A stretch of DNA of 43,569 nt, taken from contig CAYOZI010000006.1 of assembly GCA_964408425.1 (NCBI GenBank), forward strand, positions 1 through 43,569. The letters are read 5' to 3'. Both the position numbers and the translations under genes were made by a program. How positions within the stretch are numbered: the stretch's first letter is position 1; each line of letters opens with the position of its first letter. The stretch is from Candidatus Micrarchaeota archaeon (lineage in GTDB: Archaea > Micrarchaeota > Micrarchaeia > Norongarragalinales > Norongarragalinaceae). Shown here one piece after another: positions 15,919 through 29,491 of the stretch. The notes beneath the pieces are model-generated. The model worked only from the letters and a program-made list of their open reading frames with translations. It had not been told where the DNA came from and did no database searches.

Positions 15919-15954
15919 ATGACCGGAAAAAAAAGAAGGGGCGGATGCTGCTGA
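15919..15954 (+). CDS. 11-aa micro-ORF MTGKKRRGGCC (not in ORF track)
   Basis: SD GAGGTG at 15907-15912, 6 nt before ATG; stop overlaps next start (TGATG). Confidence 0.55.
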   Translation: MTGKKRRGGCC

Positions 15955-25494: not shown

Positions 25495-26007
25495 TTGGCT
25501 CAAGTCCGCGGTTTTCTGCAAGCGCAAAAAACCATCCTCACGCGGAAGAAATACGCCGCCCTCTTCGTTTTTTCCACGCTGTTTTTCGCGTGGCTCTTCT
25601 TTTTCTTGACATCCATCCGGGGCCAGAGCCTCGAAAGCTGGCTTTACAGCATAAGGGACACGACCAAAATATTCACTCTAATCGCCTCGCCGCTGCTCAG
25701 CCTGATTCTCACGACGCAGGTTTTCGTGCTGAAAAACTACAAGTTCAGCTTTCACGAGGCTAAAGCCGGCGGAAGCGCCGTCGGGGCGTTCCTCACCGGC
25801 GCAATAGCGACCGCCTGCTGCTCGCCGTTCGTAGCCGGCGCACTGGCGCTCCTCGGTTTTGCAGGAGCCAACGCATTTATCCTCCAATACGAAGTCGAAG
25901 TTTCGATTGCGGCAATAGCGGTTTTGCTTGTCGCATTATACTATTCCTCCACAATCGTTTTTTGCGAAGACTGCCGCGTCAAAACCAGCGCGAAACCCAA
26001 ACACTGA
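25495..26007 (+). CDS. 4-TM membrane protein with intramembrane CC (ATACCSP) and C-terminal CxxC
   Basis: Hydrophobicity pattern; follows dsbA; FCEDC at the C-terminus. Confidence 0.8.
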   Translation: MAQVRGFLQAQKTILTRKKYAALFVFSTLFFAWLFFFLTSIRGQSLESWLYSIRDTTKIFTLIASPLLSLILTTQVFVLKNYKFSFHEAKAGGSAVGAFLTGAIATACCSPFVAGALALLGFAGANAFILQYEVEVSIAAIAVLLVALYYSSTIVFCEDCRVKTSAKPKH

Positions 26008-26816: not shown

Positions 26817-27626
26817 TTGGTATTGATTGCGGAATTCACCATCGGATTCAGGGAGGCTCTTGAAGCCGCGCTGATAATCGGCATAATATTAGGGTATTTG
26901 AAGAAAACCAACCAAACCGAGCACAATAATCGGGTTTACGTAGGAATAGCCGCGGGGGCGATTGCAAGCATTTTCACGGCCATCGCATTCAACTTTCTTT
27001 CAATCCAGTTCGAAGGCGCTGCAGAAGCCATGTTCGAAGGGGCGGTAATGGTCGTCGCAGCCGTGGTTTTGACTTGGATGATATTCTGGATGGGCAAGCA
27101 AAAACAAATCGCCCAAAACATCCAGAAAGCAGTGGACAAAAGCCTCGCAGGAGGGCTGACAGCTCTGGCATTCATAGCAGTATACCGCGAGGGTTTCGAA
27201 ACCGTCCTTTTCCTGAACGCACTCGCCTTCTCCTCGAACGCAAACCCGCTGGTCGGAGCGTTTCTGGGAATGGCAGCCGCAGTCGTGCTGGGGTTCTTCC
27301 TGTACGAAATCGGCATCCGCCTCGACATCAAAGTCTTCTTCAGGATAACCAGCGTCATGCTCATTCTCTTCGCTGCTGGTTTGGTTGCGCACGGCTTTCA
27401 CGAATTCCAAGAGGCTGGCGCCATTACCTTTTTCACGGACGAAGCTTGGAACACCAAATGGGTTTTGGACGACAAGAGCGCAGTCGGCGCTGTTGCAAGA
27501 AGCCTGCTGGGCTACAACGACAACCCGTCCTGGCTGGAAGTCTTCGCTTACGCGTTTTACCTGACGGTAATGCTTTATTTCATAGAAAAACTAGCCGAAA
27601 CCAGGCTTTCAAGAAGAATGGTTTGA
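26817..27626 (+). CDS. FTR1/EfeU-family high-affinity iron permease
   Basis: Two RExxE motifs (REALE, REGFE), HEFQEAG, LGY...P. Confidence 0.93.
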   Translation: MVLIAEFTIGFREALEAALIIGIILGYLKKTNQTEHNNRVYVGIAAGAIASIFTAIAFNFLSIQFEGAAEAMFEGAVMVVAAVVLTWMIFWMGKQKQIAQNIQKAVDKSLAGGLTALAFIAVYREGFETVLFLNALAFSSNANPLVGAFLGMAAAVVLGFFLYEIGIRLDIKVFFRITSVMLILFAAGLVAHGFHEFQEAGAITFFTDEAWNTKWVLDDKSAVGAVARSLLGYNDNPSWLEVFAYAFYLTVMLYFIEKLAETRLSRRMV

Positions 27627-27637
27627 CAAAAAACTCT

Positions 27638-27877
27638 TCAAACGCCAAGCGCGTGCTTCAAAGTCGGCTTGTCGAAACCCACGATTATTTTCCCGTCCAC
27701 GTCTATCACAGGCACTCCCATCTGCCCGCTTTTTTCGATCATTTCCGCAGCCGCATCCCTATTGCGCGCCACATCGACTTCTTCGTACTCAACGCCGTTT
27801 TCCTTGAAAAAGCGTTTTGCCAACCCGCAGTAAACGCACGTCGGCGTGGTGTAAATCTTCACGTTATGCTTAGCCAT
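27638..27877 (-). CDS. Glutaredoxin/NrdH-like redoxin
   Basis: IYTTPTCVYC, GQMGVPVI, IVGFD. Confidence 0.93.
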   Translation of the reverse strand: MAKHNVKIYTTPTCVYCGLAKRFFKENGVEYEEVDVARNRDAAAEMIEKSGQMGVPVIDVDGKIIVGFDKPTLKHALGV

Positions 27878-27926
27878 TTTCCAAACCACCGTTTTTTCAC
27901 AGAGAACGCAAAAAGAGAAAAACGGT

Positions 27927-27968
27927 TCAGCAACAGCCGTCGCCGCAACCGCAACCAGGACCTTGCAT
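27927..27968 (-). CDS. 13-aa micro-ORF MQGPGCGCGDGCC (not in ORF track)
   Basis: SD GGGTGA 6 nt upstream; first ORF after a TATA box (28006-28015); upstream of glutaredoxin. Confidence 0.6.
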   Translation of the reverse strand: MQGPGCGCGDGCC

Positions 27969-27979
27969 TAAAAATCACC

Positions 27980-27997
27980 CAGAATAACGTAATTCTG
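27980..27997. promoter_or_regulatory. Near-perfect palindrome CAGAATAACGTAATTCTG between the TATA box and SD of the 13-aa ORF
   Basis: Outer CAGAAT/ATTCTG and central ACGT symmetric. Confidence 0.45.
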
Positions 27998-28107
27998 CTT
28001 GCAAGTATTTTAAAGTGATCTTTAACGCTGCAACGCAATACGGATAATGTTTTAAAACCGCGCGTCGTTAAAGCAATTGTTCTGTTGAAAAAGAAGGTGG
28101 TGTCAGA

Positions 28108-28308
28108 ATGGAAATAAACAAATACGGCATTATCAGCCTTGTTGTTGGATTGATTTTGTTTTTCGGAACTTACTTCGCAGTTTATTCCGGCGGAAGCGTT
28201 GCCCTCGGAAGCGGCATAATCGCGGTTTTGCTCACCCTATTGTACGGAGGGCTGCTCTGGCTGGGAATATTCTTCTTCCTGATAGGGCTGTTAATGCTAG
28301 TGCTTTAA
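28108..28308 (+). CDS. 66-aa 2-TM membrane protein
   Basis: SD GGTGGTG; hydrophobic. Confidence 0.75.
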   Translation: MEINKYGIISLVVGLILFFGTYFAVYSGGSVALGSGIIAVLLTLLYGGLLWLGIFFFLIGLLMLVL

Positions 28309-28316
28309 ACAACGGC

Positions 28317-28877
28317 TCAGCTAATCAGGTTTCCGTTTACGTCGAGAGCGTAAAGCTTGCTCACTCCGCCCTTATCCCACAGCACTATCCACGAGTCCGC
28401 AGGCAAGCCGACCGCAAACGCCGCCGCTTCGGAAGGAGACAAGGAAGGGCAGTAAGCCGTTTCCTCAAACCAATTTGCGCTAGCGGGGAATGCACACCCG
28501 TAACCGTCGTCTTTTATTCCCAACAAATTCGCGGAATTGATCAACGCCTCTTCGCGATAGAAAAGCTTAGCTCTCGGATAGCAAGCGTCGATGAAAGTTG
28601 CCGGCCTGAAACTCACTGGAGGAAGAGTGTAAAGCCGCCTTTCCGCCGTCGGGCAAGACGAATGGGCGTTGGTGGTAACTAAAACCTCGAAACCCCATTG
28701 TTTCCCGTCGAAAGATGATGCCCCGATAAAACGCGATTCAGCGTTCAAAGAAGAAACGTCTTGCAGAACGAAAGCCCTGGCCTGCTCTTCAGTCAAAGGC
28801 TTGTAAAGCTGTTGCGACAGGGAGTAAAGGAAAAGAATGACGAACATCAAAGCGATTAACGCAAAGTAATTGCGCAT
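28317..28877 (-). CDS. Membrane-anchored exported hypothetical protein (4 Cys)
   Basis: N-terminal TM; end of the pilus gene run. Confidence 0.8.
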   Translation of the reverse strand: MRNYFALIALMFVILFLYSLSQQLYKPLTEEQARAFVLQDVSSLNAESRFIGASSFDGKQWGFEVLVTTNAHSSCPTAERRLYTLPPVSFRPATFIDACYPRAKLFYREEALINSANLLGIKDDGYGCAFPASANWFEETAYCPSLSPSEAAAFAVGLPADSWIVLWDKGGVSKLYALDVNGNLIS

Positions 28878-28957
28878 TTCTTACACCACTCCACCATTCA
28901 AAAAACGATTAAGGAACGTGAGATTAAAGAACTTGCGGTTTTGCTTTCAAAACCAGC

Positions 28958-29491
28958 CTAGCAGGATAAGGAAAAGTCCGGAGTCTCGCCGTCGATTCTC
29001 ATGGAAAAGCCGGTGACAACCCCGCCTCCGGATGTTTGGGTTATTACTACGTTCTTGGAGAAAATCCAAGACTCGTTTTTAGAAAAGAAGTTCGCACCCC
29101 CAAGAGAAAAAGACGCAAGAGACGCGGTTCCGGAAACGGCGTCTGCCGCACACTCAAGAGGCAACGGGGATAAAATCCAATAAACCCGCACTATGGAATC
29201 GTTCAGCACGACGCCCGCAGGCCTATATGAGGCAAAACGCGAGTCGAAACCGGCGGTGCCGCAAAAGTCTGGCGAAAGGTTGCAACCTACGGTTGAAGCC
29301 GAATCCAAAATCGCGTCGTTCAGCGTGGCGTTCAGGAAATCCTTGGAATCGGCCGCCTTTTCAGCCACCAGCCTCGAGTGGAGTGCCGCGTTTTCGAAGC
29401 CGCTTTGCCTCACTTGCAAAGACGATGCTAGGAAAACCAACGCCAAAACCACCAGCCCCGCGAAAGCCGCTGAAGCGAACCCCTTTTTCAT
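28958..29491 (-). CDS. Minor pilin-like protein (class III signal peptide KKG/FASAAF)
   Basis: Basic leader plus hydrophobic helix; in pilin run. Confidence 0.7.
   Translation of the reverse strand: MKKGFASAAFAGLVVLALVFLASSLQVRQSGFENAALHSRLVAEKAADSKDFLNATLNDAILDSASTVGCNLSPDFCGTAGFDSRFASYRPAGVVLNDSIVRVYWILSPLPLECAADAVSGTASLASFSLGGANFFSKNESWIFSKNVVITQTSGGGVVTGFSMRIDGETPDFSLSC

Follow-up and report, generated by a model that had tools for sequence, protein, structure and literature searches.

A 13-codon cysteine-rich reading frame ahead of a glutaredoxin-like gene

The window analyzed here, the whole 43,569-nucleotide (nt) stretch of DNA, is contig C6 of the 894-kb, 47-contig genome of a Candidatus Micrarchaeota archaeon (50% G+C; 89% complete). 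On its minus strand, a 13-codon open reading frame (ORF) encoding MQGPGCGCGDGCC, hereafter the micro-ORF, stands between a putative promoter and a glutaredoxin-like gene. In what follows, G000 is the window's own genome, G001 to G004 are four other species of the same genus, and L-numbers denote scanned loci. The arrangement described by the sequence-only reading, from TATA box, palindrome and Shine-Dalgarno site through ATG, four cysteine and five glycine codons and TGA to a pyrimidine-rich tract and the glutaredoxin gene, matches the sequence; the palindrome lies where it had been placed but is not perfectly symmetrical. The features are as follows.

28005..28025, minus strand: putative promoter, with TTAAAG (28025-28020) and the TATA-like TTTAAAATAC (28014-28005), common to the micro-ORF and the glutaredoxin-like gene
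27980..27997, no strand: imperfect 18-nt palindrome (8/9 pairs) between TATA box and Shine-Dalgarno site; a possible operator, or merely the region of transcription start
27974..27980, minus strand: Shine-Dalgarno GGGTGAT, 5 nt ahead of the ATG, with GGTGAT complementary to the 16S rRNA 3' end
27927..27968, minus strand: micro-ORF, 13 codons plus TGA (ATG at 27968, TGA at 27929-27927)
27922..27952, minus strand: predicted RNA hairpin, 13 pairs interrupted by one bulge, spanning codons 7-13 and the stop
27910..27922, minus strand: two T5 runs (27922-27918 and 27914-27910), a putative U-tract of the archaeal-terminator type
27638..27890, minus strand: glutaredoxin-like gene of the YruB family with a CVYC motif; Shine-Dalgarno GGTGGT at 27890-27885, ATG at 27877, stop ending at 27638

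After the ATG the codons read CAA GGT CCT GGT TGC GGT TGC GGC GAC GGC TGT TGC, then TGA, giving a peptide with five glycines and four cysteines (positions 6, 8, 12 and 13) that include a single adjacent pair. The stop is followed by ACCG, T5, CTC and T5 before the glutaredoxin-like gene, whose 79-residue product matches Pfam PF00462 (E-value 3.9e-19) and NCBIfam TIGR02196 (93.9 bits against a cut-off of 88.55). The genome contains 135 18-mer palindromes of the kind found here, or about 0.02 expected per 150 nt; the sequence of this one is unique within the genome and is not kept in the sister species.

Contigs of three sequencing runs (X1, X5 and X7), belonging to three studies, span 27927-27968 with zero differences, and because identical contigs come from three studies the micro-ORF DNA is no assembly artefact. 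Since the 16S rRNA ends in GATCACCTCC, GGTGAT at its 5-nt distance from the ATG qualifies as a proper Shine-Dalgarno site, and a 6-mer of this type is in place at 173 of the 17,419 ATGs in the genome (~1%). ORFs of 6-45 codons with at least four cysteines and at least 20% cysteine number nine in the whole genome. Among the 163 ORFs of 5-40 codons anywhere in G000 that start with ATG behind a Shine-Dalgarno site, 3 have Cys-Cys at the end, where 0.26 would be expected from the 83 Cys-Cys-stops among 51,887 stops, a count made post hoc.

A species-specific insert behind a conserved promoter

Orthologues of the glutaredoxin-like gene were found in 49 of 61 related genomes, and a leader alignment showed TTAAAG and TTAAAATAC to be invariant in all five genomes of the genus. 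The promoter had been attributed to the micro-ORF as its own; it belongs instead to the redoxin, because the sister species keep it invariant directly ahead of that gene. A divergent 66-codon membrane gene is also retained beside it in all four other species of the genus. The distance from the TATA box to the glutaredoxin ATG is 36 nt in G003, 36 nt in G002 and 39 nt in G001; in G000 the micro-ORF supplies the first ATG, at +37, and the redoxin ATG follows at +128. The G000 leader thus holds ~90 extra, species-specific bases between the conserved promoter and the glutaredoxin ribosome-binding site, and within these the micro-ORF occupies the promoter-proximal start position.

The leader of G004 (L005) contains an insert of its own, with the hairpin ACTTCCGC-TACC-GTGGAAGT (-10.6 kcal/mol) followed by T-rich sequence. 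Upstream of one metagenome glutaredoxin gene (L060), a look-alike of the micro-ORF, LENFRCCCCGGC followed by a stop, was rejected for want of a start codon; the same stretch may also be open protein-like sequence in another frame.

A stable hairpin and U-tract at the end of the micro-ORF

The hairpin over the end of the micro-ORF has a predicted free energy of -17.6 kcal/mol, equalled by 5 of 1,000 shuffles and by 6 of 2,000 synonymous recodings. It recurs when the whole leader is folded and was also flagged by a terminator scan. Because few synonymous recodings fold equally well, the nucleotide sequence holds structure beyond what the peptide needs. U-tracts are reported to terminate transcription in archaea (PMC10450193; PMC8716108), and in Methanococcus maripaludis internal operon terminators lower the output of downstream cistrons (PMC10450193). 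That system, which like the micro-ORF and glutaredoxin-like gene places a U-tract between two cistrons, was shown in a methanogen, whereas the U-tract described here is known from sequence alone and is accompanied by an extra hairpin that archaeal terminators do not need.

The cysteine tail of the peptide recurs in arsenic-related proteins

To place the last eight residues of the peptide, CGCGDGCC followed by T[AG][AG] was scanned for in one genome per species across 185,579 bacterial and archaeal GTDB species. The scan yielded 21 loci, of which 16 have true stops and five have TGG instead. Fourteen of the 16 true-stop loci are C-terminal tails of proteins, one is a free ORF, and one is an out-of-frame match. 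The tails belong to ArsD (four), arsenite methyltransferase (two, above the NCBIfam cut-off), another methyltransferase that shares the Pfam domains of these two (L123), an FKBP-type isomerase, a rhodanese and a 4Fe-4S ferredoxin (one each), and two small Cys/Gly-rich proteins without a family; the other two (L125 and L127) lay outside the family scan. Codons vary freely among the motif loci while the peptide is constant. Of the 120 relatives closest to one clostridial ArsD, a sample biased towards the query, 104 have CC at the C-terminus and 24 have the full CGCGDGCC, which is the most frequent tail.

The out-of-frame match (L112) was rejected as a tail, its motif lying out of frame within a 348-codon ORF, and is the sole chance-type true-stop match in the scan. 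Recent transfer of a bacterial gene end was likewise rejected, as the flanks of the 16 true-stop loci match no better than expected by chance (upstream, 6-17 of 45 nt; downstream, 9-19 of 60 nt). Two matches in IMG/VR were discarded as viral carriers, both being stop-to-stop frames that lack a start codon. The string CGCGDGCC was not found in the literature searched.

In R773 ArsD of E. coli, metalloid sensing has been linked to two vicinal pairs at the C-terminal end, Cys112-113 and Cys119-120 (PMC4562236, with reference to Li, Chen and Rosen 2001). The last eight residues of our peptide are the commonest tail of the ArsD sample, although the peptide lacks an ArsD domain, consists of the tail plus five residues only, and has unrelated nucleotides on its flanks. 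No match to PF06953 (ArsD) occurs anywhere in G000, and the ArsD fold and the N-terminal Cys12-Cys13-Cys18 site are missing from the 13-residue peptide. The product of the micro-ORF would thus be five residues joined to an ArsD-type cysteine arm.

Two Oscillospiraceae proteins without a Pfam family (L119:1569-1715, minus strand, 48 residues; L129:2998-3243, minus strand, 81 residues) are each made up of a hydrophobic segment lined with cysteines and of long C/G/N repeats that end in CGCGDGCC.

Free-standing cysteine micro-genes divergent from ArsR

The one free micro-ORF sharing the exact CGCGDGCC-stop tail (L115, from a 'Gaiellaceae bacterium') is a 16-codon ORF, MRGCCDDECGCGDGCC, located behind GGAAGGAGG and divergent from an ArsR-family gene. 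A search of 31 genomes around that of L115 led to 20 loci that were examined, with start codons assigned by eye. Where the ArsR was at least 68% identical, all nine actinobacterial loci (L150-L158) had a divergent Cys-rich ORF of 14-18 codons ending in CC-stop, Shine-Dalgarno-led by sites of the GGAAGGAGG or GAAAGGAGG type; beside distant ArsR paralogues, such an ORF was found at 0 of 11 loci. Free-standing versions of the tail are thus genuine genes elsewhere, and these ORFs are likely to be an ArsR-controlled family of miniature metal(loid)-binding peptides missed by gene callers. The accessible parts of the literature on ArsR with small ORFs or micropeptides, on archaeal metallothioneins and on small Cys-rich proteins contained nothing relevant.

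The ArsR-linked micro-genes follow the model of the smtB-smtA metallothionein divergon, with 14-18 codons, about one third cysteine, a strong Shine-Dalgarno site and a CC-stop. The micro-ORF resembles them in being short, in its cysteine content of at least 30%, in its GCC-stop and in its strong Shine-Dalgarno site, but it has neither an adjoining ArsR/SmtB repressor with a shared operator nor conservation: it precedes a redoxin and is an archaeal singleton, whereas the class is divergent from ArsR and kept at 9 of 9 loci. With metallothioneins (SmtA/BmtA and the fungal copper proteins) the peptide shares C-G-C and C-C motifs, ~30% cysteine and a metal-homeostasis neighborhood. It differs from them in having only 13 residues, four thiols and no adjoining metal-responsive regulator, and it shows no homology to any family, at a length below the minima of profile and structure tools (20-30 residues). 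In kind, the micro-ORF would fall between metallothioneins, ArsD-type arms and ArsR-linked micro-genes, as an archaeal, sensor-less, 13-residue variant that precedes a redoxin.

A possible young first cistron, and its alternatives

Our tentative reading, to which we give a probability of roughly 40%, is that the micro-ORF is a young first cistron for a soft-metal, metalloid or thiol peptide, separated by a leaky internal terminator from the glutaredoxin-like gene. For its transcription, translation, metal binding and termination, and for the link to the redoxin, we infer the following course. The gain of ~90 bases would have brought a complete mini-gene, from Shine-Dalgarno site and ATG through 13 codons and stop to hairpin and U-tract. 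RNA synthesis driven by the conserved TATA box would begin a few bases before GGGTGAT, and ribosomes would produce MQGPGCGCGDGCC, whose four thiols, including the C-terminal vicinal pair, might coordinate a soft metal or metalloid. The surrounding gene island (described below) would favor copper(I) as the ligand; the tail that the peptide shares with ArsD has arsenite as its ligand there. Together, hairpin and U-tract would make up a leaky internal terminator, with short micro-ORF transcripts outnumbering read-through into the glutaredoxin-like gene, and the glutaredoxin-like protein made from read-through transcripts could keep the peptide reduced.

A pure chance origin of these joint features is unlikely, because the Shine-Dalgarno site, the ATG-TATA distance, the match to a natural tail and the hairpin with its U-tract all coincide. 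The earlier suggestion of a metal chelator gains indirect support from the recurrence of the CGCGDGCC tail module, from the ArsR-linked micro-genes and from the copper and thiol island. The accompanying idea that the micro-ORF is a conserved partner of the redoxin fails, because neither its frame nor its cysteine codons are conserved upstream of orthologous glutaredoxin genes. Functional readings stay conditional, because the micro-ORF has neither conservation nor a sensor gene.

Several results weigh against a functional peptide. The leader ORF is absent from G001, G002 and G003 and has a counterpart in 0 of the 4 same-genus genomes, and the G004 leader has a different, 45-nt insert with a hairpin and T-run and no ATG before +83. 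A comparable intergenic Cys-rich ORF was found at 0 of 29 other relatives' loci and 0 of 80 metagenome glutaredoxin loci, and even the relaxed motif CGCGxGCC-stop has a single carrier, G000, among the 401 genomes sampled from the phylum. Selection on the micro-ORF is unreadable, because the three contigs that span it are identical, and the RNA structure may itself be the selected feature, since the hairpin exceeds what the peptide demands. A degenerate GGN-TGY hexamer repeat underlies the Cys/Gly run, and the motif match is partly post hoc, its pattern having been derived from this micro-ORF. ArsD and ArsM are absent from the 89% complete genome, no gene for ArsR or another sensor adjoins the micro-ORF, and the ORFs of the window were scanned without an HTH_5/ArsR match. 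The shortest accepted metallothioneins, of Neurospora and the fungal copper type, have ~25 residues, and the peptide is half that length.

An alternative that we consider rather doubtful is a functionless recent insertion: the ~90 bases would be neutral or slightly deleterious and possibly a captured fragment, and the ORF, Shine-Dalgarno site and motif coincidental or relics. Such an origin would fit a singleton that is absent from all four same-genus genomes and from the remaining 400 genomes sampled in the phylum, and a fast-evolving leader with three lengths among five species. It would also fit the repeat character of the Cys/Gly run and the number of G-C-C-stops in the six frames of G000, which is five where composition predicts roughly five (an estimate). 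However, the combination of Shine-Dalgarno spacing, TATA-ATG distance, eight-residue ArsD tail and hairpin with U-tract is hard to obtain by chance, and the tail scan of 185,579 species genomes gave only L112 as a chance-type match with a true stop. The insert was also rejected as a repeat or mobile element, as blastn against the genome returns the insert alone, and outside the motif its nucleotides do not resemble those of the bacterial tails.

Alternatively, though this appears unlikely, the element might be a cis-regulatory leader in which the position of the ribosome on the cysteine codons or stop sets termination or access to the glutaredoxin start; the peptide would be irrelevant, and redoxin output would follow the supply of Cys-tRNA or the coupling of translation to transcription. 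The hairpin over codons 7-13 and the stop, with two T5 runs adjoining, would suit this role, as it outdoes 995 of 1,000 shuffles and 1,994 of 2,000 recodings, and so would the different hairpin and T-run in the same leader of G004 and the second micro-ORF of the window (described below), which overlaps the ATG of the next gene (TGATG) in a coupling arrangement. In mycobacteria, polycysteine short ORFs are cysteine-responsive attenuators (Canestrari et al., 10.1101/834739) and likewise form a short Cys-rich first cistron with RNA structure downstream. As described there, they are leaderless, have consecutive Cys codons, precede cysteine-metabolism genes and unmask the next ribosome-binding site, whereas the micro-ORF, unlike this 'Cys ribulon', is Shine-Dalgarno-led, alternates Cys with Gly and is followed by a terminator-like structure. 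Its consecutive Cys codons number just two, the downstream gene is a redoxin and not one for cysteine biosynthesis, and a sensor would need no peptide identical to an ArsD-type tail. The predicted minimum-free-energy fold leaves the glutaredoxin Shine-Dalgarno GGUGGU largely unpaired and seemingly unsequestered, with the AUG region only in a weak A/U stem. The leader is not conserved in the genus, and to our knowledge leader-peptide attenuation has not been shown in archaea.

A small non-coding RNA, a ~75-nt transcript from promoter to U-tract acting through its hairpin with the ORF incidental, is very improbable. Promoter, stable hairpin and U-tract would bound such a short unit, but Rfam gave no match in 27000-29000 at E-values up to 1, relatives for covariation are absent, and the placement of Shine-Dalgarno site and ATG and the peptide motif would be left unexplained.

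Should the peptide of the first-cistron reading be made, the smallest size of gene-encoded peptides with metal- or thiol-binding ability would fall to 13 residues, and the cysteine arm known from arsenic and metal chaperones would prove able to work as a free module in a minimal-genome archaeon. If it is not made, the locus is a warning that a good start, a meaningful-looking motif and a fitting neighborhood can coincide in a fast-evolving leader. The micro-ORF would offer a clean example of micro-gene birth through insertion behind an existing promoter, and together with the ArsR-linked micro-genes it points to a gene class never called by annotation pipelines. It is the class that merits attention, the micro-ORF itself being a singleton.

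Genomic neighborhood

The window carries typical archaeal genes (RFC, eRF1, GatD/GatE, ELP3 and a class-III signal peptidase). A copper and thiol-disulfide island occupies ~14.1-27.9 kb. Its genes encode a BlaI/CopY-like repressor, an M56 peptidase, a cupredoxin, two HMA proteins, a CopA-type P-type ATPase, two DsbA-like proteins, thioredoxins, a cysteine desulfurase, an FTR1 permease and the glutaredoxin-like redoxin. A GCS2-type glutamate-cysteine ligase was not found in the 89% complete G000 genome, in which glutathione synthetase is represented by no more than a sub-threshold match. The genome has five ArsR-type helix-turn-helix (HTH_5) matches, all elsewhere (contigs C9, C2, C3, C46 and C17).

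Between a DsbA-like and an HGSNAT-family gene, the plus strand of the window at 25495-26007 encodes a 170-residue membrane protein without a Pfam or NCBIfam match, with a vicinal CC within a predicted helix (..GAIATACCSPF..).

Other micro-genes ending in Cys-Cys within the genus

Two further CC-stop micro-ORFs were located in G000, one of them in the window.

15919..15954, plus strand: second micro-ORF, MTGKKRRGGCC, 11 codons, with GAGGTG 6 nt upstream; its TGA overlaps the next ATG (TGATG)
G000 contig C19:64-132 (L139), plus strand: third CC-stop micro-gene, MKKKAKSALNKGNHKTHGCSCC, unannotated and polybasic, with TATA box, Shine-Dalgarno site and T-rich end

The existence of a second micro-ORF ending in G-C-C-stop, noted in the sequence-only reading, holds, and its status as an independent gene is doubtful. 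The gene that follows it is a membrane gene of 104 codons (104 residues) conserved in the order, which the sister species begin right after the homologous Shine-Dalgarno site; the ~33 extra bases carrying MTGKKRRGGCC are a G000-specific insert. One added A in the A8 run at 15927-15934 would fuse MTGKKRRGGCC in frame as a normal basic N-terminus of the membrane gene, and a frameshifted N-terminus or a sequencing error is therefore an equal rival to a separate micro-gene. Other G-C-C-stops in G000 were rejected as micro-genes, those on C22 and C12 lying inside long ORFs and that on C33 having no start.

The polybasic micro-gene has syntenic counterparts in G004 (..MKKHGCSCC; L141:1363-1431) and G001 (..DCNCNCGCC; L142:1292-1390), and through these the genus has at least one conserved CC-stop micro-gene. 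Its cysteine tails read ..HGCSCC or ..CNCNCGCC before the stop. It stands at the syntenic site in three of the four genomes read (G003 is without it; G002 is outside this count), and between G000 and G004 its last six codons show synonymous differences only. A profile of the three polybasic micro-proteins recovered G004 and G001 only among 68 genomes of the order, in a search that overlooked the G000 copy, which lies at a contig end, and the three have no entry in a collection of 15 billion proteins.

A broader reading would unite these cases, quite improbable as we consider it. Ultra-small archaea without glutathione synthesis would make gene-encoded thiol peptides of 11-30 residues on the ribosome, with Cys-Cys-stop at the end, one of them conserved in the genus and two having arisen recently in the copper and thiol island through captured promoters. 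The 13-residue peptide would then be the smallest known free metallothionein-like product, a stand-alone ArsD-type arm recycled by the co-transcribed glutaredoxin-like protein.

A tiny element lies 3' of the polybasic micro-gene in G000 (C19, ~230-400; L139) and also at L141, L142 and L143. It comprises the TATA box GTTTAAATACG, a Shine-Dalgarno GGGGTGA and an 8-9-codon ORF, (M/V/L)AK(K)RRRR(K), followed by the hairpin GGGGTTTTT..AAAAACCCC, and its DNA identity is 73-79% in three sister species. The element could be a micro-protein gene or a small RNA.

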